This document shows positions 7,474 to 46,972 of a stretch of DNA of 64,000 bases, piece after piece. The stretch is from Flavobacteriaceae bacterium. Its GTDB lineage: Bacteria > Bacteroidota > Bacteroidia > Flavobacteriales > Flavobacteriaceae. Location: positions 567,100 to 631,099 of the forward strand of contig OZ244911.1 in assembly GCA_965221765.1 (NCBI GenBank), written 5' to 3'. The notes under the pieces are model-generated. The model saw only the letters and a list, made by a program, of their open reading frames with translations, had not been told where the DNA came from and searched no databases. How positions within the stretch are numbered: position 1 is the first letter of the stretch; every line of letters starts with the position of its first letter. Position numbers and translations under genes: made by a program.

Positions 7474-8885
7474 AGAGACCTTTGAATAATGCAAAATCAA
7501 AAAAAATGGGGTGTGATGGGGAAATTATTTTTTCTTTTCAGCCATTGAGTCTCTCATTCGATGTGATTTTCTTCCAAAAAATCACGCTATTTTTCTGATT
7601 TTGGCCTCTTTGGCTCCTTTTTCCCCTCATGGTTGAGCCGAATACGGCTTTGAGAACTTCTTTTTCGATCATCTCCCTTTTTAAGTTGGCATGAGAGCCA
7701 TCATACTCGGTGATCTCTTTCAATGCTAGGCCATCGACTCCAAAATAGGTTGATGATGGACTTTTTCCAGTCCCTTGAGTCGGGTCACTTGACCCTAGAA
7801 CCAGCGAGCCAAACCACCAACGGTCTGTTCCACCACCCAAGGTTCTTTACTGATGGGGTTGTTTCGTTCTTTCTGTGGCTCGGTCAAGGGCTTGTGACCA
7901 TAGCCCTTTTCCATCACTAAGGATGCACTCCCCATGGCCTCTAAGAGCTGGGCATTTTCTTTTGATGGGTCCCCTTTATCGGCCAAGACTCGTTGTCGTT
8001 CTTCGACCCAAAGGCCTTCCATCAAAGGCTGGAGACCTCTGGACGGTCCTGTTCATTGGCAGCCACCGTATGCACCCCCCCCCCTAAAATCAAGCCTTTT
8101 TCGGTCGTGGCCATGGGCCGTTTATACCCATCGTACGTCTTTTTTCTTTTTTTAAACCAACGGGCTTCATGGTCGGCGTTGGGACGGTCTTCCTGTTTTT
8201 CTTCATCATAACTCTGTTCAGCTTGAAGTTCTGACTCTTCACGCTGGTCTTCTTTTGGGTCTTGAGTCATTTTTTTGGGTTGACTTTTGGGGGTGAAGGG
8301 ACCGGTGGTGATGCAGGCATCCACCACCGCCCTGCCTTGAATGATCACGGCCTTTTGGGTGAGTTGTCCATGGACTTGCTCCATGATCTTTTGATAGCGC
8401 TTTTTGGCCGTCAACGCCGAACGAAAGCCAGACCGCCTGCTGTAATCGGGGACGGCATCTTCCCTATCTAAACCACAAAAAGCCGTGAAACGGATGCGGT
8501 CTTTAATGAACTCTTGGGTTCGAACATCCCAGAGGTGGAACCCGACAGAGAGGAGTGGCCTATTCAACAAAATCATCGGATGATCAGCCTTTTGGCCTCG
8601 TTGTTTTTTGCCCAATGTATCGTTTTCAACCCATAAAGCCTCCAGGGGCTCCCAATCGATCAGGTCATGGACTTGATTGAACAACGGTGGGGTCGTTGTG
8701 CGACTCCGCCCTTGATGGAGATTCAAAAAACGCATGGGGTTGGATTCATACGATTTGAAGTGATTCATCACGCGTACCATAGACCAAAAAAAAATGATAA
8801 AAACCAATGGTCAAATAAAAAAAAGAGATTTCGACCCAAACCCTTTATCTTAGCAAAAAACCGAAATTTTAGGGCAAAGGTCTCT
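7474..8885 (-). mobile_element. IS5-family insertion sequence with a decayed transposase, compositionally foreign (GC-rich)
   Basis: An 11-bp inverted repeat, AGAGACCTTTG at 7474..7484 and CAAAGGTCTCT at 8875..8885, brackets the transposase fragments. TAT is present immediately outside both ends, a possible 3-bp target duplication. The interior is clearly more GC-rich than the flanks. Confidence 0.55.
7538..8807 (-). pseudogene. IS5-family (DUF772 + DDE) transposase, split over three frames
   Basis: 8022..8807 has an N-terminal DUF772-like part (IRFTAFCGLDREDAVPDYSRRSGFRSAL) and the start of the DDE domain (ILGGGVHTVAANEQD). 7795..8025 continues with VLADKGDPSKENAQLLEAMG...KPLTEPQKERNNPISKEPWVVEQTVGGLARWF. 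The C-terminal end is in a third frame (7538..7840). Confidence 0.65.
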
Positions 8886-16610: not shown

Positions 16611-17831
16611 ATGTTTCGTTGGGCACTCATTATCGTCTTTTTATTATTGACATGGTATAGTTCACAAACCATTCGAACTGCATTGAACAGCCGAACTTGG
16701 CAATTGGTTTATGTAGGAAGTGTTCTATTAATATACGGGATGACTTTTTGGTTATTGTTGTTTTTTCCACGTCAGAATCAATTAGGCATCTTTAGACAGT
16801 ATCTCATCGGATTATCGATGGGATTGATGGTGTTTCAAGTACTCATTGTATTTTTTTTGTTTCTTGAAGATATTGTTAGACTATTTCAAGGAATCATTGC
16901 CTATTTTTCAAAAGGCACTCGGATCGACGATTTCTTTTTGCCTCAGAGAAGAACTTTTATTTCAAAAATTGCTGTATTAGTTGGTGCTATTCCATTGAGC
17001 TCAATCATTTATGGGATGTTTCGAGGGAAATATCATTATCGAATTCATGAGTACACTTTGACCTTTGAAGATTTACCCGCCTCTTTCGATGGCTTTACAA
17101 TCACCCAAATTTCAGATTTACATACGGGCAGTTTTGATAATAAAGAAAAAGTGGCTTATGGATTTGAATTAATCAATCAACTAGAATCTGATATCATTTT
17201 TTTTACTGGCGATTTGGTCAATGATCGGGCCTCAGAAGTGGACCCCTATAAATCTATATTTTCTTCTTTGAAAGCTAAAGAAGGTATCTTTTCAGTTTTA
17301 GGGAATCATGATTATGGAGATTATACAGCATGGGAATCACCACTAGAAAAAGAAAAAAATCTACTGGCCATGTATCAACTTCATCAAGAACTAGGCTGGC
17401 ATCTGTTATTAAATGAATTCACTATCATTGACAGAAATGGTGAACAAATTGCTATTGTGGGTGTAGAAAACTGGGGTACTGGTCGTTTTAGAAAATCGGG
17501 AGATCTCCAAAAAGCACTCGAAAATCTTTCGGAAGATAAATTCAAAATTTTATTATCTCATGATCCATCGCATTGGGATGCCAAAGTTTTATCGTCCCCT
17601 AATCCTATTCATTTGACACTAAGCGGGCATACTCATGGGATGCAATTCGGTATTGAAATTCCTAGCGTTATCAAGTGGAGTCCCGTCTCTTGGCGTTATA
17701 AGCAATGGGCGGGAATCTATCAACAAAGAGATCGATACCTCAATGTTAATCGAGGGTTTGGATACATCGCCTATCCAGGAAGGGTTGGCATCTATCCTGA
17801 AATTACCAAAATCACCCTCAAAAGAGCTTGA
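16611..17831 (+). CDS. Membrane-anchored metallophosphoesterase (calcineurin-like)
   Basis: N-terminal TM helices followed by the canonical motif series: DLHTG, GDLVND, GNHDYG, GHTHG. Confidence 0.8.
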   Translation: MFRWALIIVFLLLTWYSSQTIRTALNSRTWQLVYVGSVLLIYGMTFWLLLFFPRQNQLGIFRQYLIGLSMGLMVFQVLIVFFLFLEDIVRLFQGIIAYFSKGTRIDDFFLPQRRTFISKIAVLVGAIPLSSIIYGMFRGKYHYRIHEYTLTFEDLPASFDGFTITQISDLHTGSFDNKEKVAYGFELINQLESDIIFFTGDLVNDRASEVDPYKSIFSSLKAKEGIFSVLGNHDYGDYTAWESPLEKEKNLLAMYQLHQELGWHLLLNEFTIIDRNGEQIAIVGVENWGTGRFRKSGDLQKALENLSEDKFKILLSHDPSHWDAKVLSSPNPIHLTLSGHTHGMQFGIEIPSVIKWSPVSWRYKQWAGIYQQRDRYLNVNRGFGYIAYPGRVGIYPEITKITLKRA

Positions 17832-17885
17832 TTGAGAAGTACCATCGATTTTCTAATTTTTAATGATTACTCCATTCCAAAGATG

Positions 17886-18237
17886 TTATGAAAAATACTT
17901 GAGAGTTCGGTTTTTATCTTCCATGGATTTGTCTCCCTTGTAATATAATTCTATAAACGTTATTGTGTTTTCTTTTTTATCAAATGCATAAATAAGGCTC
18001 ATGCCTGAATTAATTCCTTTCGATTTAATACTCCTTATAGGCGAATTTCTTTCGTTTAATGATAACTGTTGATATCCCCAAGCCACCTATTCTAAAACTC
18101 CATGGAGGCTTTTCATTTGGATTCTCTTGCAATAATTTCTTGATAATTCCCAAATCTTCGGAGAGAGATTTAAATCGTCTTTTGGATAATTTCCTTAACT
18201 CTTTTTCAAACTCATCCAATGAGTCAAAATTCATCAT
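17886..18237 (-). pseudogene. RelE/ParE-superfamily-like toxin, frameshifted; cognate of the upstream Panacea antitoxin
   Basis: Two overlapping ORFs, 18025..18237 and 17886..18086. The first ends KRKKFAYKEY*. The second continues in another frame with SIKSKGINSGMSLIYAFDKKENTITFIELYYKGDKSMED. Removing one G at the AAGG near 18033..18036 would join them into about 117 aa. The 5' end overlaps the antitoxin gene by 14 nt. Confidence 0.5.
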
Positions 18238-18778
18238 TTATATCATACTCCCGAACGGTATACGGCTCTTCTCTATAAAATGCTAATTCATAATCTATAA
18301 CTTCATTAGGTTCGGTTACCCTCCAAGGAATATCATTGTGCGAATACTCGCTAATGTCTTTCGCTGATTTGTTTAATAATTGATCCATCACATTATCGAT
18401 GACTTTTTTCTCTCTTTGATGGAGTATTTTTAAACTTGGTGTTATGCAAGGAATGTATTTAATCCTAGGGAAATCCACAACTTGAATGGCCTTTTCTAAT
18501 ACCAAATTTGATTTTTTAAGCTCATCCAAGATTTGATTGAAATGTTTTGGCACAGGCCCATGTTCAAACTTAAGATATGTTTCTCCTATCATCTGCTCTT
18601 CATATGGTTCATAATGATTGAAATCTGAATAATATAAAAGTTTACAAATCATCGTTTTTCCTACATTAGGTTTGTCTTTACAAGAGTAGATGATATAAAA
18701 TAAAACCTCTTTAAACTTCTCTATATTTAATTTAGGTTCTGAAATCCTTTCTTGATATTCACTTAAAGATTTCATCAT
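18224..18778 (-). CDS. Panacea / SocA-like (DUF4065) antitoxin-domain protein
   Basis: KLLYYSDFNHYEPYEEQMIGETYLKFEHGPVP is the characteristic DUF4065 core. It lies upstream of, and overlaps, a small toxin-like gene. Confidence 0.7.
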   Translation of the reverse strand: MMKSLSEYQERISEPKLNIEKFKEVLFYIIYSCKDKPNVGKTMICKLLYYSDFNHYEPYEEQMIGETYLKFEHGPVPKHFNQILDELKKSNLVLEKAIQVVDFPRIKYIPCITPSLKILHQREKKVIDNVMDQLLNKSAKDISEYSHNDIPWRVTEPNEVIDYELAFYREEPYTVREYDINDEF

Positions 18779-19004
18779 GTGGTTGTATGTATTGTTAGGA
18801 TTTTTCTTTTTCTCTGCTCATTAACATTTGCCAGCCATCATAAAAGAGGCCATCGAATATCATTAATGACTATTTCTCCCAAAACTATTATGGTAACTAT
18901 CCTCTCTTTTCATAATAAAATGTGAATTCTGTTTATTTGCAAACACGATCCATAAGATGGACAACACCTTAGTGTCCTTATTGTGAATTTTAATTACTTG
19001 AAAA

Positions 19005-20581
19005 TTGAAAATCCCCATAATTGATCTTTTTGCTGGACCTGGAGGTTTGGGTGAGGGATTTTCCAAATTTGAGCATGAAGGTAATGGCGGTTTCGATGTT
19101 GCATTATCTATTGAAAATGAATCGAATGCTCACAAAACATTAGAACTAAGAAGTTTTTTTCGAAAATTCACTTCTAATCAAGTTCCAAAAGAGTACTACT
19201 CCATCATGCAAGAAAAAGATTTGAAAAAAAGAAGTCAACTAAGACAATCCCTATTTGAAAAATACCCTCAACAAGCTCAAAAAGCTAAGCTCGAGGCTTG
19301 GCAGACAACTTTAGGACAAACCACAATAAAAGAAGTGGATCAAAGAGTGCGTGAAGTATTAGCAGGAAAAGAAAATTGGGTTTTAATTGGAGGGCCTCCC
19401 TGTCAAGCATACTCATTGGCTGCTAGAGGACGACTAAATCCTAAAACAATTGAAGCCGATGAAAGATTGCATCTCTACAAAGAATTTGTAAGAATTGTTG
19501 CGGTGTACAGTCCTTCTGTTTTCCTAATGGAAAATGTCAAAGGGTTATTGTCATCGAAATCAAGAGGAGAAAGAATCTTTCCTAAAATCCTTTCTTATTT
19601 AGAATCTCCAAAGTTACTTTTTAATGTAGGACGCTATTGCTATAAATTGTACTCGTTATGTCAAGAGCAAGAAGATAAAAATAACGTTCATTCTAAATAT
19701 CTCATTAAATCTGAGAATTTTGGTATACCACAAAAAAGACACAGAGTGTTTGTATTGGGAATAAGAGAAGATATTAGCATGAAACCTCGTAATTTAGTGC
19801 AGTCTAAAACGACTGTTAGCGTGTCTGATGTAATTGCTGATTTGCCGATGATAAGAGCTAGTATAAATCGTTCTCTTGTGGTGGATAAGAATAGTTTTGA
19901 TTCAAAAAGAAGACAATACAAAAAAGAAGAAGATAGTTTTCAAAATTGGTTCAAAATAATGAGCACACACTATAAGGATATTAGCGATTACTTGCATATG
20001 GGTAATATTAATAAATTTGCCCCCCCCCATTAAATTCTGGTGCAGAATTTGTAAAAGGTCATACTCCTTCTAAGCTCAATCCCCTTTGTGATTGGTATCG
20101 TGATGAGAACATAAAAGGAGTTTCAAATCACGAGTCGAGATCTCACCTTGTTCAAGATTTAAAACGATATTTATTCTCGGCATTATGGGCCAAAAAACAC
20201 AAAAAGTCGCCAACCCTTTCAGATTATAAAAACACATGCGAGGATTTACTTCCCCACCATAAAAATGCTACATCTGGAAAGTTTTCAGATCGTTTTCGAG
20301 TTCAACTTGAAAATGAACCGGCTTTTACCATAACTAGTCATATTTCTGTGGATGGCCATTACTACATCCATTATGACCCTTTACAATGCCGAAGCTTTAC
20401 GGTCAGAGAAGCTGCGAGAATACAAACCTTCCCTGATAATTACTTGTTCTGTGGAAGCAGAACAGCACAATACAAACAAATCGGTAATGCTGTTCCTCCT
20501 CTACTAGCAAAACAAATAGCCGCAATTGTTTTCAACATATTAAGGCCTATTGGTAGTGATACGAATCAAGAAGAGACTTAA
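19005..20581 (+). pseudogene. dcm: DNA (cytosine-5)-methyltransferase, interrupted by a frameshift inside a C9 tract; possibly phase-variable rather than dead
   Basis: Frame A (19005..20033) has motif I DLFAGPGGLGEGF, motif IV GGPPCQAYS, motif VI ENVKGL and motif VIII QKRHRVFVLG. Frame B is open from 20015 to 20581 and has RSFTVREAARIQTFPDNY and QIGNAVPPLLA (motifs IX/X). The frames switch within C9 at 20020..20028. One extra C gives a continuous 525-aa ORF. TTG start. Confidence 0.85.
20020..20028 (+). repeat. C9 homopolymer at the frame break of the methyltransferase gene
   Basis: Reads aaatttgCCCCCCCCCattaa. The stop codon TAA follows 2 nt downstream in the 5' frame. Confidence 0.9.
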
Positions 20582-20596
20582 AATAACAATGTTAAG

Positions 20597-22072
20597 ATGA
20601 AACATCTCAAAGATTTGGACTATAACGATACACCACCAAATGCTGCAACAATGATTAATTCATTTAGAAGTTTCGGTTATGATTTAAAAACAGCAATAGC
20701 AGATGTAGTTGATAACAGTATTTCGGCATTGGCAAAAAACATATGGATTGATTACAAGTGGAAAGGGGGTAGTTCATGGGTTACCATTACAGATGATGGT
20801 TATGGAATGGATGGAAAAACATTAATTGAAGCCATGAGACCAGGTAGTAAAAACCCTCTTGATGAACGCGATGAAAAAGACTTGGGACGCTTTGGTCTTG
20901 GATTGAAAACATCTTCTTTTTCACAATGCAAATGCTTAACGGTTGTCGCTAAAAAACTCGGATATAATCTAATCAAACGACATTGGGATTTGGATTATGT
21001 TAATGACTCAGGAATATGGCGAATACACGATTATTTATCTGAAGATTATTTCACTCATCGACTTCAAAAGCTTGAAAGTGGAACAACAGTCATATGGGAG
21101 AAAATGGATCTGCTTTTAGGAGGATTAAGCATTAAAACTGAGAATGAAACCGCAATGAAGGCTTTTCTAAAAGAATTTGAAGAGGTTGAAAACCATCTCA
21201 GTTTAGTATTTCATCGCTATATCGATAGAAAGAAGCTAAATATTTGGATTAATGATCACAAGATAAAGGCATGGGATCCATTTATGAAAGAGGCTGACGG
21301 AACACAGAAAATTGCAGAAGAAAAATTAGATAACAGGCAAATACAGATTAGATGTTATGTGATTCCTCATAGTTCCAAAATAAGGGAAGAAGATTATAAG
21401 GAAACAAGAATAAATCAATGGTATGATTTGCAGGGGTTTTATATCTACAGAAATAATCGGCTTTTACTTTATGGAGATTGGTTAAAACTCTTCCCTAAAA
21501 AAGAATATTTTAAAAATGCTCGAATTCTTGTTGATATCCCAAACACCTTGGATAGTCATTGGAAAATTGATATCAAAAAAGCAAAAGCAACTCCACCAGT
21601 AACAGTTCGAAGTGATTTAAAAAGATTGGGGCTATTGACTCGGAAGCATGCTGCTAAAGTCCATCAGTTTAGAGAGTTCATCCCCCCTTATAGACCTCAT
21701 TTAAAGTTCCAATCCGTATGGCATGCCATTAGAAATAGGGACGGCATCATGCAATACAAGATTAATACAAGGCACACTATAATCGAAAACCTATTGAATA
21801 GGAACCAAATAAGCAAACGTGATTTTATAAAAGTGTTGTATCTCGTGGCACAAACCATACCCATTGAATCTATCATTCAATCTTATGATGAATATCCAAA
21901 TCATCATGATTGTATTCTTCACAAAGAATTAGAGCTTAAGACAATTGAATTTGCTAAAGATCTTTTTGAAACCTTGCTTTCTAGGGGGGAAACAAAAGAA
22001 AAAGCGAAACAAGAGATTTTAAGACTTGAACCATTCAACAACTATCCTCAACTAGAAAAGTACTTGGTGTGA
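20597..22072 (+). CDS. GHKL-superfamily ATPase (HATPase_c_3 / prokaryotic MORC-like)
   Basis: Bergerat-fold motifs in order: N-box DVVDNSISA, G1 box TDDGYGMD, G2 box GRFGLGLKTSSF. 491 aa. The start is 15 nt after the dcm stop. Confidence 0.8.
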   Translation: MKHLKDLDYNDTPPNAATMINSFRSFGYDLKTAIADVVDNSISALAKNIWIDYKWKGGSSWVTITDDGYGMDGKTLIEAMRPGSKNPLDERDEKDLGRFGLGLKTSSFSQCKCLTVVAKKLGYNLIKRHWDLDYVNDSGIWRIHDYLSEDYFTHRLQKLESGTTVIWEKMDLLLGGLSIKTENETAMKAFLKEFEEVENHLSLVFHRYIDRKKLNIWINDHKIKAWDPFMKEADGTQKIAEEKLDNRQIQIRCYVIPHSSKIREEDYKETRINQWYDLQGFYIYRNNRLLLYGDWLKLFPKKEYFKNARILVDIPNTLDSHWKIDIKKAKATPPVTVRSDLKRLGLLTRKHAAKVHQFREFIPPYRPHLKFQSVWHAIRNRDGIMQYKINTRHTIIENLLNRNQISKRDFIKVLYLVAQTIPIESIIQSYDEYPNHHDCILHKELELKTIEFAKDLFETLLSRGETKEKAKQEILRLEPFNNYPQLEKYLV

Positions 22073-24849
22073 TGACCTCCGATTACCATAAAGCTATCAG
22101 TATATGCCTCACAATTTTGGAAGGTCCTTCAAGTAGCCCATCCTATGAAAAAATAAAAAGTACCGCTACAGATCCATTAATCCTAAAAAAATATCCAAAT
22201 GTTGATTCAAATGAACTTGTGGCCGAACTACAGAGTATTTTTAAAATTGAATACTTTGATTCAAAAGAATTAGTAAGACGAGATATTAAACCTTGGATTA
22301 GAGAAATGAAATCTTCGATTGAGTGGGAGTTATGGAATCGATATACAAAACATCTCAAAAATGAGAATCCAACTTTCCCAATCCACAAACTTGATGATTA
22401 TACCGATAGAATTTTAGATAAATGTATCAATCCCAAAGAGAAAGGCCCTTGGGATTCTAGAGGAATGGTTGTTGGAAATGTTCAATCCGGAAAAACCGCA
22501 AATTATATCGGTCTCATAAATAAAGCAACTGATGCGGGTTATAAAATGATTATCGTGATTGCAGGGGTTCAAAATACTCTTAGAGCTCAAACTCAACTTC
22601 GAATTGACCAAGGTTATATTGGAAGGGATAGTGCGGAGTATATAGAAAAACGCAGAAGAAAAGTCATTGGAGTCGGAAAATTTACAGCTAAAAAAGTTAT
22701 TTATTCCTACACTTCTTCCGTTTCAAATGGGGACTTCAATAAAAATATAGCAATGAGATTGAATGTCCCAATTCATGGTGAAAGCCCGACCGTCGTTGTC
22801 ATTAAGAAAAACAAATCCATTCTTGAAAATTTAATTCTTTGGCTTGAAGGATTTGTTCAAGCCAATGAGCATGTTGATCCGAAAATAGCAGACGTTCCTT
22901 TATTGGTCATCGACGATGAAGCTGACAATGCATCCGTTAATTCAGGGACACAGTTGGATGTGAAGACGATAAATCGCTTGATACGAACACTTTTGAATTT
23001 ATTTACCCAAAGTTGCTACATAGGTTATACTGCTACCCCCTATGCGAACTTATTTATCCCTTCAGATTGGAGTAATGATCTCAGAACAAATATCAATGGA
23101 AGTAACTTACTAGTTGGGGAAGATTTATTTCCTCGTGATTTCATCATTAACATTCCCGCTCCTTCAAACCATATTGGAGGCCCTCAATTGTTTGGATTGA
23201 GACATACGCATCTAGGTGAAGATTCTGAAGGATTAAATTTAATCCGTACGGTAAATGATAGTAGCCCACACTTTCCACAAAAAATTAATAAGGAGAATGA
23301 AAAAAACCTCCCCAATGAACTTCCATTATCACTTAAAGAAGCGATACAAACTTTTATTCTGACGTGTGCCATTAGACGTGTGAGAAATCAAAAAGAAAGT
23401 CACAATTCAATGCTTATCCATGTCTCACTTCGTGTTCAATGGATTGATAGAATATCTTTCTTAGTCAATGAAACGGTTCGAGATTATGTTCGACAGATCA
23501 AGTCAAAACAAGGTGGCCTTTTACGAAAAATGAAATGTTTATACGAACAAGATTTTATCAAAACCACTGAGTCTGTAATAGAAAACATGAGCTATGAGGA
23601 CAAAAGAATTAAAAAACATAACTGGGCTCAAGTACAGCAAGAATTATATCCTGCTGCATCCAAAATTGATGTGAGAGCCGTTCATGGAGAAAAGAGAATT
23701 AAAAATTTAGAATATGATGGGGTACAAGAAATCAATTATCGCGACTATGAAAAAGGGCTGTCTATCATTACAGTTGGTGGAAATAAACTCTCAAGGGGCA
23801 TCACTTTGGAGGGACTCTCGGTGAGTTATTTCTTGAGGACAAGTCGAATGTATGATTCCTTGATGCAAATGGGGAGATGGTTTGGGTATCGACCTGGATA
23901 TGTTGATTTATGTCGCCTTTATACTACCGATACTTTGGCAAATTGGTTTCGCCATATTACTCTAGCTACTGAGGAAATGAAAAACGATTTTGATGAAATG
24001 GCTTTAAACAATAAAAGTCCAAAAGATTTTCAACTTAAAGTGAAAAAACATCCAGGGATGCTAAGCATCACCTCCATTTCAAAGATGAGAGGGCATGAAA
24101 CTTTAAAAGTTGGTTTTTCGGGTAAAACAATTCAAACTCATGAATTTTTAAATTCTGCTAAAATGGTTGAAGCCAATTATGAGGTATTTAAAGATTTTAT
24201 TTCCAATTTAAATACCCCCGAAACAAAAAAAACAAAAAGTGGAGCAGTCAATGCATTGCTTTGGAGGGATGTAAGTGTGGACTTAATTCAAAAGTTTTTA
24301 AATAAATACCAATCACCATTAACCCTCAGAAAAAAACAACTAAGTGATTACATACAAAAACAAAACAAAAATGGCAATCTAAAATCCTGGCCAGTGGCGT
24401 TAATCTTAACTTCAAAAAAACAAGCAATGTTTAAAAAGAAAAATAAACTTTTCTCAACTCAAAAAGTTTTATTTGAATGGAATGGCGGTGAAGAAAATGG
24501 TGGAATTCCATATCGAAAATTGTGTAGAAGTAACGGCAAGTTATCTGTTAAAGGGAATAAAAACGCCATTTTAGGGCCTAATGACCGAAAGATTGATCTA
24601 TACGTTGATGCTAAAAAAGAAAGCCAAATGACCGAAATAAGAAAAAGATTAAAACAACCACTACTTGCCATTTTACCAATTGACTCTCGAATCAGCGAAA
24701 ACCTCAACTCGAAAATTCCAATCATCGGTTTTGGACTGATTTTTCCTCAACTAGAAGATGAAGAAGTTGTGGAATATGCGGCTAGGCCTTTTGAAGATTA
24801 CGATAACAACCTTCAAGAAGATGACGATAGAGCTGAATATGAAAATTAA
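22069..24849 (+). CDS. Z1-domain protein (SF2 helicase-like ATPase with a C-terminal Z1 domain)
   Basis: Walker A GNVQSGKTANY, Walker B/DEAD-like LLVIDDEADNAS, and a C-terminal Z1-type block GGNKLSRGITLEGLSVSYFLRTSRMYDSLMQMGRWFGYRPGY. The start (GTG 22069 or ATG 22072) overlaps the upstream stop codon. Confidence 0.8.
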   Translation: MMTSDYHKAISICLTILEGPSSSPSYEKIKSTATDPLILKKYPNVDSNELVAELQSIFKIEYFDSKELVRRDIKPWIREMKSSIEWELWNRYTKHLKNENPTFPIHKLDDYTDRILDKCINPKEKGPWDSRGMVVGNVQSGKTANYIGLINKATDAGYKMIIVIAGVQNTLRAQTQLRIDQGYIGRDSAEYIEKRRRKVIGVGKFTAKKVIYSYTSSVSNGDFNKNIAMRLNVPIHGESPTVVVIKKNKSILENLILWLEGFVQANEHVDPKIADVPLLVIDDEADNASVNSGTQLDVKTINRLIRTLLNLFTQSCYIGYTATPYANLFIPSDWSNDLRTNINGSNLLVGEDLFPRDFIINIPAPSNHIGGPQLFGLRHTHLGEDSEGLNLIRTVNDSSPHFPQKINKENEKNLPNELPLSLKEAIQTFILTCAIRRVRNQKESHNSMLIHVSLRVQWIDRISFLVNETVRDYVRQIKSKQGGLLRKMKCLYEQDFIKTTESVIENMSYEDKRIKKHNWAQVQQELYPAASKIDVRAVHGEKRIKNLEYDGVQEINYRDYEKGLSIITVGGNKLSRGITLEGLSVSYFLRTSRMYDSLMQMGRWFGYRPGYVDLCRLYTTDTLANWFRHITLATEEMKNDFDEMALNNKSPKDFQLKVKKHPGMLSITSISKMRGHETLKVGFSGKTIQTHEFLNSAKMVEANYEVFKDFISNLNTPETKKTKSGAVNALLWRDVSVDLIQKFLNKYQSPLTLRKKQLSDYIQKQNKNGNLKSWPVALILTSKKQAMFKKKNKLFSTQKVLFEWNGGEENGGIPYRKLCRSNGKLSVKGNKNAILGPNDRKIDLYVDAKKESQMTEIRKRLKQPLLAILPIDSRISENLNSKIPIIGFGLIFPQLEDEEVVEYAARPFEDYDNNLQEDDDRAEYEN

Positions 24850-25852
24850 TCTCAATGACATTTGGTCTCGACTAGAATCTCAGACCGATAAAAATGTGCC
24901 AAAACAGCATGTAAAATCAGTTGGACAAATGCAATGTTTTATCGGTTTTGTTGGTCATACCAATAGTAAACTGTTTCAATGTGACATTCCGAAAGAAGTT
25001 CAAAGTGAAGCCGACAATCAGAGAAAATTTAGAGGAGTGGATATGTACACCATATCCAAACATGATTCTAAGCAAAGAAGTTTTATTATTCTTTTAGCTG
25101 AAGAAGCTCTAGAAGGAGTTTTTACACTTTTTATCGAAGATTTACTCAAAAGACTTGATTCAGTTGGAGATGATGAAAGTAAGGGATTTGTTGCTATAAA
25201 TAAGAGAATCGACTATTGGCAACGGTTATTTGAAAAAGTGCCTAATGGACTACTGTCTAGAGAAAAGCAAAGAGGTCTTTATGGAGAGTTATATGTCTTA
25301 AAAACATTGCTCAATGAAGGAAAAAATCCTGAAAAAGCAATCAAAAGCTGGGTTGGGGCTGAAGGATTAAGACAAGATTTTTTATTTGAAAATAACGCTT
25401 TAGAAATTAAGACTCAATTGATAGCTAGCACATCAATATCCATATCCAATGAATTTCAACTCGACTACACCGTGTTAGAAAATCTCTATTTGTCTGTTAT
25501 CCTTCTCAATGAGTCCAAGGGAAATGAAAATACGATTTATCAAATCATCTATGAAATTCAAGAACTATTAGTGCATGATTTTGAGTTGATGGATGAGTTT
25601 AAACAAAAACTTGCGTTTTTGGGAATTACAGAAAAAACAGCGTTTAATCATTATAATCAAACAAATTTCTCAGTAAAACAAACAACTTACTATAAAATCG
25701 ATGATGGATTTCCTTTGCTTATTAATCCCCTCATTAACAATGATGCAATCTATAGTGTAAGATACAAAATACATAATAGTAGCTGTGCTCAATTCAAAAT
25801 AGATAAAGACCTAGCATTGGCATTTCTTGATAATTATAAATCAGTACAATGA
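24839..25852 (+). CDS. PD-(D/E)XK-motif protein (DUF4420-like predicted nuclease)
   Basis: GLYGELYVLK ... RQDFLFENNALEIKTQ matches an E ... D ... ExK restriction-endonuclease-fold core. The preferred start is MKINLND at 24839, an 11-nt overlap with the Z1 gene. The track ORF starts at 24758 and would overlap by 92 nt. Confidence 0.6.
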   Translation: MKINLNDIWSRLESQTDKNVPKQHVKSVGQMQCFIGFVGHTNSKLFQCDIPKEVQSEADNQRKFRGVDMYTISKHDSKQRSFIILLAEEALEGVFTLFIEDLLKRLDSVGDDESKGFVAINKRIDYWQRLFEKVPNGLLSREKQRGLYGELYVLKTLLNEGKNPEKAIKSWVGAEGLRQDFLFENNALEIKTQLIASTSISISNEFQLDYTVLENLYLSVILLNESKGNENTIYQIIYEIQELLVHDFELMDEFKQKLAFLGITEKTAFNHYNQTNFSVKQTTYYKIDDGFPLLINPLINNDAIYSVRYKIHNSSCAQFKIDKDLALAFLDNYKSVQ

Positions 25853-28266
25853 AGCATATCGATTTCGAACTCGCTAAGTTTCAAAAAGAAATACACCACG
25901 AAGTGAATTCACGGGCTTCTTCTGCCGAAGAGGGAGCGACTAAAGAAGGGGTTTTTTCAGAATATATTTTGGAATTTCTGAGTGAAGCTGAGGAAACGAG
26001 TGCAACGAGAATTTGTTACTACGAAAGAGAAAATAGATGGGAAAACATAGAATGTAAAATCAACGGATATGCTGTTGAAGAGGGCTTTGATGGGAAGGCT
26101 TACGATGGTGTGGGGTACGAAACCATAGATTTATTTATTACTTATTACAAGGAAAGTTTAGAGCCTTTTCATTTACTTAAACCTGAATTTGAAAACTTGA
26201 TTAAATGGCCTTCTTGTTTTCTTGGAGATTCCTTAAGAGGACATTTGACCGATGAAATAGAAGAATCAAATGAAGCTTATGGACTATCCAAATTAATTCG
26301 AGATTCTCGTAAAGAACTCTCACGCGCAAATATCTTTATCCTTTCTAATGGAATTATTAGACATGATCCGCCAACAAATTTCGCAATTAAGGGATTTGAA
26401 GATTTAAATATCATTTTTCACGTTTGGGATATTGAGCGTTTGCTACGACTTTCGCAATCAAAATACAACCGAGAGCCTATAGAAATAGATTTTTTAAAGG
26501 ATATGCAAGTGAAGATTCCTTGTCTCCAAATGCCTTTAAAAAATGATTTATATGAATGTTATTTGGCAATTATGACAGGCAGTGTTTTGTCTAATCTATA
26601 TCACAATTACGGATCAAGATTGCTTGAAAGCAATGTAAGAGCTTTTTTACAACAAAGAGGAAAAATCAATCGAGGAATACGAGACACCATTTTACGCGAG
26701 CCAGAAATGTTTTTAACTTATAATAATGGTTTAGCAACTAGTGCTCAAGAGGTTAAAACAGAAAAAGGGGATAATGGTCAACTATACATCACTAGAATAA
26801 AAGATTTTCAAATAGTCAACGGCGGGCAAACGACAGCTTCTCTTTTTTATACCTATAAGAATTACAAGGATAAGGCCGACTTATCTAAAGTGCTTGTGCA
26901 ATTAAAACTCACGGTCATTAAAGATGAAGAGAAGAAAAATGAGATGGTCCCCAAAATAGCAAGATACGCCAATAGTCAAAATAAAGTTTCTGAACTAGAC
27001 CTCTCTTCAAACAATCCGTTTCTTCAGCGGCTTGAGGAGTTGTCTAAGACTACATATGCTCAAAATACTGATGATCCAAACAAACTGACCCTTTGGTTTT
27101 TTGAAAGAGTTCGAGGCCAATATCAAGAAGAGCTCAATAAGCGCCCCACAAGAAGTACTGAAAATGCTTTTAAAATGAAATTTCCTAGACATCAAATCAT
27201 CATTAAATCCGAGGTTGCCAAGTTTATGAATATTTGGAAACTTTATCCCTATGAAGTTTCGAGAGGGAGTCAAAAAAATTACATAACATTCATGAAAGGA
27301 GTTGAAAAGGAATTTTCAAGCAGAAAAAAACCTGGACGTGTTTATTGGGAAGATTTAGTTGCCAACGCGATTATATTCAAAACAGCAGATAAATTATTTG
27401 GAAGGAAAAATAAAAATCCAATTGGAGATACATTAATCAAGTCATATACTGTTACGTATACGTTGTCTTTTTTACATCATCTAACAAATAATTTGATAGA
27501 TCTTGAATTGATATGGAAAAAACAAACTCTTGAAGAAGATTTTCAAGAAGAGATTAAAAAAGGATTGAAATACGTATATGACTTCTTTGAGTCATTGAAT
27601 GCGCCATTAGTTTCTGAAGCTGCAAAAAGGAAGGAGACATGGAATAAACTAATCAAAATAATCGATGGTCATGGTCATCCATTTGATATGCGCGTGCTTA
27701 GTAAATATTTTACTACCAAAGAAAAGAAAATACAAAGAAATGATTTAGATAAAAACCATTCAGTCAAGCCCAAGAGTTTTGATAACTTAGAAACAATTTA
27801 CTCCCTAGGAACTAAATTTTGGGATGGCTTAGGCACTTTTAATGTTCGTGAGAAATATTTATCAGATTTCAAAGAAAACATAGTGAAAAGTATTTCTGAA
27901 AAATATAATTCCCGAAAGAGTTTGACGCCGACTGAAATAAGACATGGGATAAATATTATCAACACATTAAATAAAAAAAACATAGATTTTGAAAGTATTA
28001 GAGATTTAAGCAAAATTGAAAATGACCAAGTAATTGATCTTTCTAAGATTTACTATAAGTTGTTTTTAATCTCTGATGCCGAATGGGAAGATAAAATAGA
28101 ACTTGGAATGCAAACACAAAAACTAAATGATAATGAAATCAGCACCATGAAGGCCGTTCAATTGAAATTAAAGAGAGAAGGTTCTAAAGAAGTAGTCATT
28201 GACTTTGAACGATTGCAGATTGTATATGATTCCCTGCAAAAATTAGAAAGATATAGAAAAGTATAG
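25849..28266 (+). CDS. AIPR (abortive-infection phage-resistance-like) family protein
   Basis: Central block NVRAFLQQRGKINRGIRDTILREPEMFLTYNNGLATSA ... QIVNGGQTTASL is typical of AIPR proteins as I remember them. 805 aa. ATGA overlap with the upstream gene. Confidence 0.7.
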   Translation: MKHIDFELAKFQKEIHHEVNSRASSAEEGATKEGVFSEYILEFLSEAEETSATRICYYERENRWENIECKINGYAVEEGFDGKAYDGVGYETIDLFITYYKESLEPFHLLKPEFENLIKWPSCFLGDSLRGHLTDEIEESNEAYGLSKLIRDSRKELSRANIFILSNGIIRHDPPTNFAIKGFEDLNIIFHVWDIERLLRLSQSKYNREPIEIDFLKDMQVKIPCLQMPLKNDLYECYLAIMTGSVLSNLYHNYGSRLLESNVRAFLQQRGKINRGIRDTILREPEMFLTYNNGLATSAQEVKTEKGDNGQLYITRIKDFQIVNGGQTTASLFYTYKNYKDKADLSKVLVQLKLTVIKDEEKKNEMVPKIARYANSQNKVSELDLSSNNPFLQRLEELSKTTYAQNTDDPNKLTLWFFERVRGQYQEELNKRPTRSTENAFKMKFPRHQIIIKSEVAKFMNIWKLYPYEVSRGSQKNYITFMKGVEKEFSSRKKPGRVYWEDLVANAIIFKTADKLFGRKNKNPIGDTLIKSYTVTYTLSFLHHLTNNLIDLELIWKKQTLEEDFQEEIKKGLKYVYDFFESLNAPLVSEAAKRKETWNKLIKIIDGHGHPFDMRVLSKYFTTKEKKIQRNDLDKNHSVKPKSFDNLETIYSLGTKFWDGLGTFNVREKYLSDFKENIVKSISEKYNSRKSLTPTEIRHGINIINTLNKKNIDFESIRDLSKIENDQVIDLSKIYYKLFLISDAEWEDKIELGMQTQKLNDNEISTMKAVQLKLKREGSKEVVIDFERLQIVYDSLQKLERYRKV

Positions 28267-28323
28267 TTGGTCTTTGGTTTAGGCTTCTTTGTATAAGGGG
28301 GGGGGTAAAAGAAACATAACGAG

Positions 28324-31300
28324 TTATAAATCTTCAATGTCAATATCAAATAGCTTTAGGGTTTGATGGAAACGTTCTGATATTTGACTTTGGAAATCAG
28401 TAGTATCATTAGCCTCGATCATATCAACTATATTATTATACTGCGCAAGAATATCCGTTAGTTGATTGAGGTATAACTCAAAACTTTCGTCAGGAATACG
28501 CGTATAGACTTCGGCTCTAGAAGCATATTGTTGTGTAATTTTAAGTGCCGTTTCTTGAGCTTTTTGGATGGCCCCACTTTGGTAATAGGCATCTACAAAT
28601 TCGGACATAGGCGTATAGAATTCATATTCTCCATAGAGGTCCGTAAATGGGGTAGTGCTTTGAATAAATTGATCTATATATACTTCGTATTTCTCAATAT
28701 CTGCATTCTCAAAAATTGTTCTCAAAGCGGTTCGATATCTTTCGATTTCAGTTAAAATTTCTGAAAGAATCATATTCTGTCGATTAAACGATAACGAACT
28801 GAAATAAGCCAATCGATCCATATATTTTTCAGAAACTGTTTCAAATAAATCTCTAGCCCTTTGGGGGTTATCAATTTTATAAAAGGTGTCAATAAAGGGA
28901 TGTAACAAGGAATAATAGCCAAAAAAATCAATAGGCATTTTTTCTAATGCCAATTGAATCACCTCTTGGGCCTTATCAAATTTTTCTTCTTTTACCAACT
29001 GATTAGCAAGACGTGCAATATGACTTCTATAAGTGATGCTATTCTTACGCGTTTCAGGATCATGATAAATATTGGGGTCTTCTGAATTTCCCCATTGCCA
29101 TTGCGTGACAATGGAATACATTTTTTCTGAATCGATTTTCCCCATTAAATAGGGATTGGATGGATCTAATGGTGTTTTAATAGGAACTAATTTATACACC
29201 ATTCCTTCTAATTCAAGATACTCTTTCATCCAAATGTACTCAGAAGCTTCAAAACTTCCTCCGGTAAAATAAATAGGTCTTTTCCAATCATTATTAGCCA
29301 AAATATCCAACATCATGACTTGATTTTTAGTTAATCCTGAAGTTGGTAGATCAATATCGATATGTGAAACAATTTTAGATTCATTTTCAGGCCTAACAAT
29401 TCCATATTTTAAAACATTTTCTTTATTGATAGGAACCCGTATTTTATTGGTTGGATAGTAAATCATTTCTTGCTGACTCAATGGTAGGTATGAAAAATCG
29501 GACTCCATTTCCTCTAATATATGACGGTATCTAGTTTTAGGATGATCACTTGATATCCAATTGACAAAGTCTTTGATATCCCAACGGATGGTATCATTAA
29601 CCGGATGAAATCGAACATATTCTCGAGTTCCATAGGCATATTGTTTATGGTTCAATTGAGAAGGGATTGGGTTGCTTTCATAAGTTTTCCTTTTCATTTG
29701 ATCTATATACCAATAGGTAGCTAGTAATGACGTATTGATGGTTCGAACATCGGTTCGGATGCCTTCAATTTCTTGAGCATACCAAAGTGAAAAAGTATCA
29801 TTATCACCAATAGTAAATATCATGGTTCCCGCATCTTCTTGAAGTGATTTTAAATAGGTTTTAGACATCGACTGGGCCGTATAACGATTGGATCGATCAT
29901 GATCATCCCAATTTTCAGCAAACATCAACAAAGGCACACACAGTAGCGCCACCAAGACCATCAAAGGTCGCATCAAATGTGGTTTGAAACGTTGCCAAAG
30001 CTTGGTCAAGTAGTAAGTCCCTAGGCTAATACCAATGGAAAATACATAAAACGATCCCACCAAGGCATAATCACGTTCTCGAGGTTCAAAAGGACGTTCA
30101 TTTAAATAAACCTTGAGCGCCAAGCCTGTAAATAAAAATAAAATCAAGAGCTTCCAAAAGGTTTTTTTATCTTGATTATAGAGAAAAATAAAGCCTAAAA
30201 CCCCAAACAGAAGCGGTAAAAAATAATACGTATTGCGTGCTTTGTTGTTTAAGGTATCTTGATCTAGAGCCGACTGATTTCCTAGTCTTACTTTATCTAT
30301 AAATGGAATTCCACTAATCCAATTCCCATTCAAAATAGAATAGTCTCCTTGTATATCGTTTTGACGTCCTGTAAAATTCCACATAAAATAACGCCAATAC
30401 ATATATCCCATTTGAAAATTGAGCAGAAAGGCGAGATTATCAATCAGTGTGGGTTTTGATATCTCCAAATACCTTCCGTAAGATCTGAAAAACTCATCAT
30501 AATCTTCTCCTGTCAATAATCCTTGTTGCCCTCGAAGCTGAAAGTCACTAATAATATTTCGTAATTGTTGACTAGCTCCATATTCGGGTAATATTGAAAA
30601 ATCTAGTGGGCCAATAAAGTTCATATAGTTGGCCGCGTTCTGTGTGCTCCAAAGTCTTGGAAGCAGTCCTTTGTGGTCTGAATGGCTATTGATTCGAGCC
30701 CCTTGCCAATTATTGACCACCACATACTTCCTATTTTCGTTATCTTTTTCATACTTGGGTTTATCATCTCGAAATGGTTTAATCGGATCTTGACCCGCGT
30801 ACATATCCGAGAACATAGGGCCATAAAATAGATACGTATCTGGATACTGTTCCATTCGATAGTAGGCTAAAAGAGTTCTTGCATCAGAAGGGTCATTTTG
30901 GTTGATCACCGTATTGGCATTGGCTCTAATTGGAAGCATCATCCATGAAGAAAACCCAATGAATAGAAATAAAACACACAAAAAGGCTGTATTCAAATGC
31001 ACCCAATTTCTTTTTGCTGTCAAACGAAGAGATAACACAAAAATCAATACAATCAGTAGGCCGGCAAAAATGGTTCCACTATTAAAAGGGAGCCCCAAAG
31101 TATTGACAAAAAACACTTCAGTTTCTCCAAAAAAAGCTAATGTATTGGGTAGTAATAATTTGAATATGAATAATAAGATGGCAATGGATATTACATTGGC
31201 TAGTAAAAATCCTTTGACCGTGGTTCTCGAAAAATTTCTAAAATAATAGACCATTCCTATGGTGGGAATTGCTAATAGAGCCATAAAATGGACCCCAAAT

Positions 31301-31863
31301 GAAAAACCAATCACAAGCGACATCAATACCAACCATTGATGCCCTTTTGGCTTGAACATATCTTTCTCCCAACGCAATGCTAACCAAAACAAGATGGCTA
31401 GAAAACACATGGCCATGGCATACACTTCTGCTTCAACAGCATTAAACCAAAAACTATCCGAAAAACAAAATGCTAAGGATCCGACAGTAGCACTCCCCCA
31501 AAAAGAGATTTTTGACGCTATACTTTTTAAAGACGTAAAAGCAGATAATTTTCTAAGCAGAATGGTAGTTGTCCAAAACATAAAAAGTATAGTAAAAGCA
31601 CTTGAAATGACCGACATAAAGTTGACCATGAGAGCAACTTTTTCTGGACTTGAAGCAAAGGTTGCAAAAAAAGCACCTACCATCTGAAAAAATGGAGCCC
31701 CTGGAGGATGTCCTACTTGGAGTTTTGCTGAAGTAGAAATATATTCACTAGCATCCCAAAAACTTGAAGTGGGTTCAACAGTAGAACCAAATGTAATTAG
31801 AGCAATAATGAAAATACACCAACCCCAGATATTATTCCAACGTTTGTAACTATTTTCATCCAT
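28324..31863 (-). CDS. DUF2723-domain polytopic membrane protein (PMT/GT-C-like glycosyltransferase fold) with a large C-terminal domain
   Basis: N-terminal SFWDASEYISTSAKLQVGHPPGAPFFQMVGAFF signature, many TM helices, and a TPR-like helical tail. 1179 aa. Confidence 0.75.
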   Translation of the reverse strand: MDENSYKRWNNIWGWCIFIIALITFGSTVEPTSSFWDASEYISTSAKLQVGHPPGAPFFQMVGAFFATFASSPEKVALMVNFMSVISSAFTILFMFWTTTILLRKLSAFTSLKSIASKISFWGSATVGSLAFCFSDSFWFNAVEAEVYAMAMCFLAILFWLALRWEKDMFKPKGHQWLVLMSLVIGFSFGVHFMALLAIPTIGMVYYFRNFSRTTVKGFLLANVISIAILLFIFKLLLPNTLAFFGETEVFFVNTLGLPFNSGTIFAGLLIVLIFVLSLRLTAKRNWVHLNTAFLCVLFLFIGFSSWMMLPIRANANTVINQNDPSDARTLLAYYRMEQYPDTYLFYGPMFSDMYAGQDPIKPFRDDKPKYEKDNENRKYVVVNNWQGARINSHSDHKGLLPRLWSTQNAANYMNFIGPLDFSILPEYGASQQLRNIISDFQLRGQQGLLTGEDYDEFFRSYGRYLEISKPTLIDNLAFLLNFQMGYMYWRYFMWNFTGRQNDIQGDYSILNGNWISGIPFIDKVRLGNQSALDQDTLNNKARNTYYFLPLLFGVLGFIFLYNQDKKTFWKLLILFLFTGLALKVYLNERPFEPRERDYALVGSFYVFSIGISLGTYYLTKLWQRFKPHLMRPLMVLVALLCVPLLMFAENWDDHDRSNRYTAQSMSKTYLKSLQEDAGTMIFTIGDNDTFSLWYAQEIEGIRTDVRTINTSLLATYWYIDQMKRKTYESNPIPSQLNHKQYAYGTREYVRFHPVNDTIRWDIKDFVNWISSDHPKTRYRHILEEMESDFSYLPLSQQEMIYYPTNKIRVPINKENVLKYGIVRPENESKIVSHIDIDLPTSGLTKNQVMMLDILANNDWKRPIYFTGGSFEASEYIWMKEYLELEGMVYKLVPIKTPLDPSNPYLMGKIDSEKMYSIVTQWQWGNSEDPNIYHDPETRKNSITYRSHIARLANQLVKEEKFDKAQEVIQLALEKMPIDFFGYYSLLHPFIDTFYKIDNPQRARDLFETVSEKYMDRLAYFSSLSFNRQNMILSEILTEIERYRTALRTIFENADIEKYEVYIDQFIQSTTPFTDLYGEYEFYTPMSEFVDAYYQSGAIQKAQETALKITQQYASRAEVYTRIPDESFELYLNQLTDILAQYNNIVDMIEANDTTDFQSQISERFHQTLKLFDIDIEDL

Positions 31864-38545: not shown

Positions 38546-38792
38546 TTTAGGAATTTGTTGTAGTCCTCCGATGATAGCAGTCTAAACCCCACAATGGAAT
38601 AACATGGCATTTCTAAATTTTTAAAGCTTTAAAAACCTCTATGTTCATAAAAATTGCCTATGTAGGCCCCTAAACTGGTTCCACACCTTTCGAGATATAA
38701 CCAAAAATATTTACCTTTGATCCTTCCATGACAACCATTACGATATGTTTCATTAAGCGTCTCCTTTTAAACCCAGGGTTTCCCCATAAAAT

Positions 38793-38801
38793 GGGGGGGG
38801 G
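38793..38801 (+). repeat. G9 homopolymer beginning with the G of the ATG start codon
   Basis: Reads ataaaatGGGGGGGGGctgtagcc. The current reading is MGGGCSPRWPMPTLFLR followed by a stop. Confidence 0.9.
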
Positions 38802-40104
38802 CTGTAGCCCTCGGTGGCCTATGCCTACTCTTTTCCTGCGGTAAGACCGATTCGTCCGAACCCACTCCTAGTCTGCCGTCGACTCCCCCCACCTATACCA
38901 TCACCACCACTGCCACCATAGGCGGCACCATCACCCCCACCCAAACCGTCCCCCATGGCCAAACCATCACCGTGACCCTCACCCTACAACCCCATTATCA
39001 ACTCCAGCAGTGGCAAAGCGATTGTGGGTCGTTCGACCCACAACAAAACACCCTAGAACTCCTAGTCCAAAAAGACTGTACCATCACCGCCCGACTCACC
39101 CTCGATACCCCTTTGTATCTCGATACCAATGGGCTCACCATCCGAAGCCGACCCCAAGGAGAACGATTCATCGGACAAACCAAGCTCCTGGCCCACCCAG
39201 AACACCCAGAGCCCCTAGCCATCCGCATCGTGGATCAAACCGCCCTACGAACCCTCATCCAACAACAAGACTGGTCGGCCCTCGAAACCATCAATACCAC
39301 CTTTGTTACCAATCTGCGCAATCTCTTCCGGAGCCAAGACACCTTTAATGCCGATATCCGCTCGTGGGATGTCAGCAACGTCACCACCATGCAAAAACTC
39401 TTCCAGGGAGCCACCGCTTTCCAACAAGATCTCAGCCAGTGGACCGTCTCACAAGTGACCGATTGCCATCAGTTTGCTCAACAGAGTGCCTTCACCCCCG
39501 ATGGGTGGCCTCGCTTTACCGCTTGTGATTTACAAGAAATCGAAGAAACCAGAGATTGCCATGGCATCCCCACCCCCATTGATCAACCCTGTCCTAGTCG
39601 CCCACAGCCCCAGACCAAAGAGTGCAACCGACAGCAGATTCCCGTGGATGAAGATTGTCTAGCGAGACCCGCCACCAAAACCTGTTGGGATGGTTCGGTG
39701 ATTCCTCGCTCTCAAAATTGTCCGATGCAAACCAAAGATTGCCATGGCAATCAAATCCCCGCTGGCGATACTTGTCCGCCCTTGCTAAAAAAAGCTACCA
39801 ATGGGGTCACGGTCATCATCAATCCCGTGCTGCAAAACCCTGCCCAATACGTGGGACGAAAAGCTACCCTCGATGGAACCCAGTATACCATCGTGAATAA
39901 TGCCTCGCTCAAAGCATGGGCAGCGGCTGATCATACCAATGCCGTGTGTACCACCCTGGTGACCGATATGACAAATCTATTTTCTAATAAAACTAACTTT
40001 AATCAAGATATTGGGGATTGGGATGTCAGTAATGTCACCGATATGACTGGTATGTTCACTGATGCTAGAGCCTTTAATCGAGATATTGGGGATTGGGATA
40101 CGGG

Positions 40105-46776: not shown

Positions 46777-46972
46777 GTGAGGTAAGAAAAAAAGATGATG
46801 TGGATTAGTTTATACTCTATTCTTTCCAAACCGAAACACCCCCCCCCCACAAATCTTTAATCCCTCCATCGCTAGATGATACTAGTAATAACTCTCATGG
46901 GTGTTTGCTCTATATAGGCTATGTTCTACTCATGTCCCGTCATGATTTTTTACTTTCGTATTTTGATGGTAA

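Follow-up and report, generated by a model that had tools for sequence, protein, structure and literature searches.

A polymorphic C tract as a probable ON/OFF switch of the Dcm methyltransferase at the head of a Mza-type operon in Flavobacteriaceae

The window analyzed here is a 64-kb stretch from a Flavobacteriaceae bacterium (assembly GCA_965221765.1, contig OZ244911.1, positions 567,100–631,099), and the element in question is a homopolymer of nine C residues within dcm, a methyltransferase gene that occupies the mzaA position of a defense-type operon. Read directly from the sequence, the C9 homopolymer lies at 20020–20028 on the plus strand, as do both parts of the gene. The 5′ frame (19005–20033) begins with a TTG start codon, encodes 342 amino acids (aa) ending in NKFAPPH, and terminates at TAA 20031–20033; it is the only long open reading frame that runs into the tract. 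The 3′ frame (20015–20581), which is in the −1 register relative to the 5′ frame, encodes the target-recognition region and motifs IX and X and stops at 20579–20581. Upstream, TAA TAA at 20009–20014 closes the −1 frame, which is open from 20015. The addition of one C fuses the two frames (...NKFAPPPLNSGAEFVKGH...) into a 525-aa product, and the removal of two C residues (C7) gives the same fusion less one proline (...NKFAPPLNSG...), while C8 leads into the third frame, with a stop about 17 codons on. Thus, the gain or loss of a single C moves dcm between 342 aa (C9, out of frame, OFF) and 525 aa (C10, ON). The 3′ half contains no stops in the −1 frame, compared with 8 and 15 in the other two frames. 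The first-pass annotation had already placed the C9 tract, the TAA codon closing the 5′ frame and the 3′ frame open from 20015 to 20581 at these positions, and had claimed that C10 or C7 would join the frames, C10 yielding 525 aa; the sequence and simple frame arithmetic bear out each of these points.

The 5′ piece matches the Pfam profile PF00145 over profile positions 36–213 and the 3′ piece over 196–320, and these match ranges indicate that the two are complementary halves of one C5-cytosine methyltransferase. The 5′ piece contains motifs I (DLFAGPGG), IV (GGPPCQAYS), VI (ENV) and VIII (QKRHRVF), and the 3′ piece contains motifs IX (FTVREAARIQTFPD) and X (GNAVPP). The fused protein therefore shows the motif order of the C5-cytosine methyltransferases, i.e., I, IV, VI, VIII, target-recognition region, IX and X. 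It aligns end to end with homologues of 520–550 aa, and alignments of the C10 product to 118 full-length homologues (51–56% identity) cross the junction gap-free. Judging from these features, the fused dcm product is a C5-cytosine DNA methyltransferase of the PF00145 family. At the junction, the middle proline alone is conserved (69 of the 118 homologues) and the flanking residues are free to vary, which places the tract in a linker that tolerates change, located after motif VIII and before the recognition region. The tract was built in this lineage from CCC codons, which make up 24% of the proline codons in the window. A scan of GTDB genomes revealed 79 other loci encoding this Dcm family, all of them at most 54% identical, full length and free of a tract at this site; the sole close relative in that scan is a second species, described below as species B. 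A pattern scan of JGI metagenome contigs with variable tract length and both flanks gave no matches, and the lineage seems to be absent there.

The dcm gene heads a tight operon in which successive stop and start codons abut or overlap. The first downstream gene, mzaB (20597–22072), starts 15 nucleotides (nt) 3′ of the dcm stop and encodes a GHKL/MORC-like ATPase (HATPase_c_3; PF13589, 5e-29; PADLOC MzaB, 1.5e-88). It is followed, with a 4-nt overlap between the mzaB stop and the mzaC start, by mzaC (22069–24849), which encodes a Z1-domain superfamily-II helicase-like protein (PF10593, 1e-77; PADLOC MzaC, 1e-152). The third, mzaD (24758–25852; start called at 24821 in another strain), encodes a DUF4420 protein, a predicted PD-(D/E)XK nuclease (PF14390, 3e-60; PADLOC MzaD), and joins through an ATGA overlap to mzaE (25849–28266), which encodes an AIPR protein (PF10592, 2e-86; AIPR_N; PADLOC MzaE, 5e-80). 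All four are on the plus strand, and the co-oriented GHKL ATPase, Z1 helicase, DUF4420 and AIPR genes, as identified by Pfam and PADLOC, constitute a Mza/MORC-type operon. Its first gene, however, encodes a Dcm and not the non-methylase MzaA of the validated Mza system. By gene content, the operon is a Dcm-linked MORC/Z1/DUF4420/AIPR (Mza-type) system, the DCM-containing variant described in PMC2292703. All four Mza partners are found downstream in 25 of the 79 GTDB loci encoding this Dcm family. A further locus with C9 and G11 runs (L051) was considered as a second variable Mza system and was dropped, as no MzaBCDE genes lie downstream.

Upstream of dcm, a leader of about 100 nt (18905–19004, plus strand) is conserved between the two species and probably contains the dcm promoter; within it, a near-consensus Bacteroidota −7 box, TTTATTTG, is located at 18932–18939. 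A TAnnTTTG box at 20012–20019, directly abutting the tract, was considered as an internal promoter and rejected, as it is not conserved in species B (TAAATTTA). A scan for sigma-70 promoters and terminators found 33 sites against 40.6 expected and was uninformative, this promoter type being not applicable to Bacteroidota. Divergent from the operon and just upstream of it lies a SocA/Panacea-domain antitoxin gene (18224–18778, minus strand) with a small overlapping open reading frame (18025–18237). Between the SocA/Panacea gene and dcm, species B has an inserted ISL3 transposase fragment along with about 3 kb of additional DNA.

Species B is represented by the metagenome-assembled genome Flavobacteriaceae bacterium CAR1_bin_5 (GCA_026710085.1; contig L003, a NODE_ contig at 70x coverage). 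The operon is present there in the corresponding chromosomal location, syntenic and with 87.6% nucleotide identity to the window. Its tract is located at the same codon, TTTACCCCCCCCCATTAAA, is likewise C9, and is followed by the same stop; indeed, the block 20020–20056 is invariant between the window and species B. The 342-aa product of the window is also on record from a 2.75-Mb contig and a 19-kb metagenome contig. When proteins are clustered at 90% identity, each of the two truncated products falls together with a 525-aa member, and these members lead to the C10 alleles. In the window's species, C10 is found on L088 (ERZ25070844:ctg10120_11x_l, 1.45 Mb), for which a 525-aa methylase was called. 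Over 22.4 kb, L088 differs from the window by 13 single-nucleotide polymorphisms (SNPs) and two 1-nt insertions/deletions (indels), one of which is the C9-to-C10 change, and many A/T runs of 8–9 bases show no change of length. In species B, C10 is found on L090 (ERZ27276879:k141_8656), which is separated from L003 by a single SNP and a single indel in 21,030 bp, the indel again being the C9-to-C10 change. Altogether, C9 is present in L001–L006, L089 and L091, and C10 in L088 and L090. In species B, the C9 alleles belong to at least three haplotypes: L002, L003 and L004 do not differ from one another, L005 departs from them by 13 SNPs and L006 by 1 SNP, and L091 is more distant. Tract-length polymorphism on near-identical backgrounds was thus observed in both species. 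Since the tract changes its length while the surrounding 20 kb gains one to a dozen substitutions, it bears the signature of a hypermutable switch.

The lengths of mzaB, mzaC, mzaD and mzaE are equal in ON and OFF strains, except in L091 (ERZ25067984, species B; 16839–21029), where the insertion of an IS1595-family transposase gene truncates mzaE to 406 aa. On the 3′ side of this insertion, L091 has a second Dcm gene (19255–20505) with an in-frame G9 run (..KIGGGCIF..) just after motif I, as well as an MTaX1-domain gene. The OFF allele of L003 carries, at its position 11459 (equivalent to 20462–20464 of the window), a Thr-to-Arg change in the out-of-frame 3′ half, which is absent from L090, L091 and the window.

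Between the window and species B, the ratio of nonsynonymous to synonymous substitution rates (dN/dS) is 0.23 for the 5′ half of dcm (binomial P = 4e-10 against neutrality). For the 3′ half, read in the −1 frame, it is 0.18, with 26 synonymous and 20 nonsynonymous changes (P = 2e-7 under neutrality) and no indels. The corresponding values for mzaB, mzaC and mzaE are 0.13–0.32. Apart from the tract, the gene is intact and under selection, with no stops or indels in either half across the two species. Because the out-of-frame half is conserved like the neighboring genes in both species, the junction must be translated through often enough for selection to act. These data bear directly on plain decay, i.e., a methylase pseudogene left by a one-base deletion in an operon on its way out. 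The truncation of mzaE by the IS1595 insertion in L091 and the additional Thr-to-Arg change in the OFF allele of L003 would fit such a course. However, the frameshift position is common to two species at a synonymous divergence (dS) of about 0.26, over which the out-of-frame half has acquired no stops or indels at a dN/dS of 0.18; intact C10 alleles exist in both species, and mzaB, mzaC and mzaE are themselves constrained. Decay is thus very improbable, and the need for the 3′ half to be translated in order to be selected practically excludes it. As a side observation, dS between the window and L003 climbs along the operon (dcm 0.26, mzaB 0.30, mzaC 0.40 and mzaE 0.56), which may reflect recombination or differing constraint.

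The conserved halves could also be thought of as a split enzyme, in which two separate polypeptides assemble into an active methyltransferase. M.AquI is a C5-methyltransferase of this two-polypeptide kind, and in split C5-methyltransferases, both natural and engineered, the cut falls after motif VIII and before the target-recognition domain, which is the variable region where dcm is broken as well. Yet, no start codon is found close to the break in the 3′ frame. The first one, GTG 20348, would give only 77 aa, without the greater part of the recognition region, and the start called in species B lies elsewhere (L003 11167, 136 aa), so that the start is not conserved. An independent start for the 3′ half was rejected on this ground, the first start codon differing between the species. 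In addition, no Shine-Dalgarno-independent restart signal is conserved, and fused C10 alleles exist. Two-polypeptide assembly of this enzyme is therefore extremely improbable.

The C tract is thus probably a DNA-level ON/OFF switch of dcm, a hypermutable contingency tract. Slipped-strand mispairing during replication would toggle the tract between C9 and C10. With C10, the full 525-aa C5-cytosine methyltransferase would be made; with C9, translation would end one codon after the tract and leave a 342-aa fragment, which should be catalytically dead because it is without the target-recognition region and motifs IX–X. We infer that switching is reversible and frequent within the lineage. The comparison of the two species indicates that selection has maintained the tract and both halves of the gene ever since the species diverged. 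The first-pass annotation had put forward that the modification gene may be phase-variable, and had pointed to tract lengths in related strains and to further inactivating mutations as the observations that would bear on this. C9 and C10 are both found within each of the two species, and no other lesion is present in dcm, with a dN/dS of 0.18 for the 3′ half; the proposal is supported by both results.

Several points weigh against such a switch. Only C9 and C10 were seen, and never C7, C8 or C11. C9 predominates in both species, and a tract fixed for recoding would look alike. The tract lengths are those of assembly consensus sequences, and both heterogeneity within a population and reversibility are presumptive. 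The samples of species B are possibly not independent, since L002, L003 and L004 are identical and the contigs L090 and L002 are similar in size. Moreover, the ctgN_Nx_l contig names of the window's species look like those of a long-read metagenome assembly, in which we take homopolymer length to be the main error, and the 2x contig does show homopolymer errors elsewhere.

The last of these points leads to homopolymer miscalls as an explanation: there would be one real tract length, the C9/C10 difference would be an assembly or sequencing error, and the gene would be simply intact or broken. This is a genuine concern, as the contigs of the window's species do resemble long-read assemblies of low to medium coverage (2x, 11x and 17x in their names), and within 13 kb of L089, the 2x contig, homopolymer errors of +1 occur three times and disrupt mzaC in two of these cases. 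In species B, however, the C9 allele is present in at least three haplotypes from assemblies of short-read style (NODE_ at 70x, scaffold_ and Logan), and a k141_ contig, likewise of short-read style and otherwise one SNP away, has C10. Likewise, L088 differs from the window by only two indels in 22.4 kb, none of them in the A/T runs of 8–9 bases. An error can create neither the tract itself, nor its conservation across species, nor the excess of similar tracts described below. Miscalls as the whole explanation are accordingly rated as quite unlikely.

The predominance of C9 is relevant to programmed recoding, whereby C9 would be the functional form and the full-length enzyme would be made through −1 ribosomal frameshifting on C_CCC_CCC or through slippage of RNA polymerase. 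The shift needed is indeed −1, and C_CCC_CCC (20021–20027) formally fits the X_XXY_YYZ heptamer, the stop following one codon on. On its 3′ side, a 9-bp A/U-rich hairpin (UAAAUUCUG-GUG-CAGAAUUUG; 20031–20051, plus strand) begins 2 nt beyond the tract and contains the stop codon of the OFF state. At the DNA level, it is a perfect inverted repeat, AAATTCTG gtg CAGAATTT, identical in species B. Together with the majority of C9 alleles in both species and the purifying selection on the 3′ half, this conserved hairpin would be consistent with recoding. The hairpin is weak, however, at −6.1 kcal/mol (1 of 200 shuffles of the 28-nt piece folds as well), and it lies 3 nt after the heptamer, whereas recoding stimulators are typically located 5–9 nt from the slippery site. 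No Rfam family matches within 18700–20800. In-frame C10 alleles occur in both species, so that the gene is not fixed out of frame, and other tracts of this kind in the window are intergenic or beside a start codon, where recoding makes no sense. Recoding in place of a DNA switch is therefore unlikely. Some leaky slippage from C9 may occur and is compatible with the DNA switch, to which it would add without being needed.

The dcm tract is not an isolated feature. In the window, six G/C runs of at least 9 bases are present, compared with 0.14 expected from a first-order Markov model at 36% GC (Poisson P = 8e-9), which argues that the tract is not a chance feature. There are no G/C runs of length 8 and only one of length 7; the length distribution is therefore bimodal. 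By comparison, four G/C runs of that kind were found in 1.34 Mb from the 79 unrelated loci. Three of the six window tracts (dcm, 46839 and 8075) differ by one unit from those of a second strain, while ordinary sites differ at about 0.1–0.3% and none of the A/T runs of 8–9 bases differs.

The other five runs are found in various contexts. A G10 run (3869–3878) is in frame in the gene for the alpha subunit of class I ribonucleotide reductase (RNR; 3009–5447) and has the same length in the second strain (L093); such a hypermutable-looking run in an essential-looking gene is unusual. A C10 run (8075–8084), which is C9 in L093, lies in an IS5-like (DUF772) transposase remnant (8022–8807), and nearby, at 8289, the window has T4G5 and L093 has T9G9. 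A G9 run (28297–28305) is located in the 57 nt that separate mzaE from a convergently oriented TMEM260-like O-mannosyltransferase gene (28324–31863); species B lacks it, and the 2x contig has G10. A further G9 run (38793, within 38791–38801) directly follows the ATG of a DUF285 lipoprotein-like gene (38972–40414) and throws it out of frame. The signal-peptide/lipobox frame (...LGGLCLLFSCGK...), which runs on into the DUF285 open reading frame, is out of frame at G9 and would be restored by G8 or G11. This gene is OFF in both strains, its body (38921–40256) is hypervariable between them, and it is a candidate phase-variable surface lipoprotein. Finally, a C10 run (46839–46848) is intergenic, 134 nt upstream of the phosphoglucomutase gene pgm (46973–48691), and is C9 in the second strain (L087); at 46564, the window and L087 also differ by an indel of a 21-nt repeat unit.

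Species B has a C9 run of its own at L003 9857–9865, 144 nt upstream of the dcm start and just outside the conserved leader, which is of equal length in all assemblies seen; the window carries only C3 at roughly this place. The 28297 run and this upstream C9 show that tracts turn over between the species, in contrast to the dcm tract, which is retained. One further 1-nt indel relative to the second strain, at 33342, lies at the start of the 5-formyltetrahydrofolate cyclo-ligase gene and outside any homopolymer; the encoded protein is 202 aa with a GTG start in the window and 216 aa in L087. An exact-protein look-up gave no match for RNR beta and, for PHO4, matched the 2x contig only.

The consequences of the switch for the whole system are less certain than the switch at the DNA level, and here we infer them from the state of the operon; this, too, is a point to be set against the interpretation. 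The first-pass annotation had described the four downstream putative effector genes as intact, which the Pfam and PADLOC matches confirm, and had offered as one option that OFF cells are transient or counter-selected, which is made unlikely by C9 being the commoner consensus state. Because this commoner state coexists with intact and selected mzaBCDE genes, the MzaBCDE proteins are presumably not self-toxic in the absence of methylation. One explanation would be that the methyltransferase itself is needed for target recognition or restriction, as with Mod in Type III systems and PglX in BREX/Pgl. Alternatively or additionally, the stop codon 564 nt upstream of mzaB may lower downstream expression through lost translational coupling or Rho-dependent polarity. 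The methyltransferase requirement, polarity, or both are most likely the reason why the OFF state is tolerated. Were this so, the tract would switch the whole Dcm-Mza system; genome-wide 5-methylcytosine (m5C) would flip too, with possible regulatory side effects like those of phasevarions.

A more far-reaching view would treat poly-G/C contingency loci as lineage-wide (about one per 10 kb in the window) and the dcm tract, conserved across species, as the master switch of Dcm-Mza. The methyltransferase would then be an obligatory specificity or activating subunit for the MORC, Z1, nuclease and AIPR proteins, and switching would reprogram m5C-dependent expression, as a phasevarion, in a marine animal symbiont. 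This extended scenario is possible, albeit doubtful.

The mechanism as such is that of an ordinary simple-sequence phase-variable methyltransferase and is of a known kind. What is new here is the gene concerned, a Dcm heading a Mza/MORC-type operon, together with the m5C class of the enzyme and the sponge-associated Flavobacteriaceae host. In the literature searched, we found no phase-variable Mza member described and no report of homopolymer phase variation for Flavobacteriaceae or sponge symbionts. The locus represents a natural genetic experiment for Dcm-linked Mza/MORC defense, as methylase-OFF populations with intact effectors are common. For the same reason, the effectors are unlikely to act like a classical restriction enzyme, to which the cell's own DNA falls victim when unmethylated, and the tolerance of the OFF state constrains the mechanism of Mza/MORC systems. 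That a hypermutable tract has stayed at a single codon while two species diverged, and that both halves of the gene are under purifying selection, is clear evidence that the mutability itself is selected. In addition, the occurrence of homopolymer contingency loci, and of a candidate m5C phasevarion, would no longer be confined to the classic host-adapted pathogens but would include a member of the Bacteroidota, an uncultured associate of marine sponges.

Among known systems, the operon corresponds in gene content to the type drawn in PMC2292703, where the predicted MORC/paraMORC restriction-modification (R-M) operons combine a GHKL ATPase, a Z1 superfamily-II helicase, a novel restriction-endonuclease-fold protein, AIPR and DCM (Iyer, Abhiman and Aravind 2008). 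According to PMC9523054, the MzaABCDE system (Gao et al. 2020) is validated, and MzaA is called a sigma factor there. MzaB, MzaC, MzaD and MzaE are all matched here, but the MzaA of the validated system is a non-methylase, and a Dcm takes its position in the window.

The genome context resembles that of Campylobacter jejuni and Helicobacter pylori in its low GC content, in the bimodal excess of G/C runs of about 9–10 bases, and in lengths that differ between near-identical strains. In both of these low-GC pathogens, as in the window, poly-G/C tracts are found near start codons, near promoters and in R-M genes. For H. pylori, R-M genes with poly-G/C contingency tracts have been reported (PMC4209511, PMC3936762). 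The present tracts differ in belonging to a sponge-associated member of the Flavobacteriaceae, and in that one of them is in frame in RNR alpha, an uncommon setting for a contingency locus.

Slipped-strand phase variation of R-M methyltransferases is known generally (PMC12707154), and phasevarions have been described for the Type III mod and Type I hsd genes of Neisseria, Haemophilus, Helicobacter and Moraxella (PMC12707154, PMC6902483, PMC5700931). As in those systems, repeat slippage inside a methyltransferase reading frame would turn dcm ON and OFF. The likeness may extend to the OFF state, which is tolerated in phasevarions since restriction depends on the methyltransferase subunit. However, phasevarion enzymes are Type I and III N6-methyladenine enzymes of host-adapted pathogens with demonstrated regulons, whereas dcm encodes a Type II-like m5C enzyme with Mza-type partners, known from its sequence. 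The dcm gene is therefore a candidate phasevarion member in part, namely for the half of the definition that concerns a variable methyltransferase.

The nearest analogue of the dcm tract is the G tract in pglX of the Pgl system of Streptomyces coelicolor (Sumby and Smith 2003, as cited in PMC4365076), which phase-varies defense at 1e-2 to 1e-4 (PMC4365076). In both cases, a G/C homopolymer is located in the methyltransferase gene of a multi-gene, non-classical operon for phage defense, predicted in the case of the window, whose other genes are intact. PglX, however, is an N6-adenine methyltransferase of an unrelated system (BREX/Pgl) in a high-GC actinomycete, for which the switching of defense has been measured. 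In the present case, the enzyme is a C5-cytosine methyltransferase that heads a MORC/Z1/DUF4420/AIPR operon in a flavobacterium of 36% GC, and its switching is deduced from the comparison of strains.

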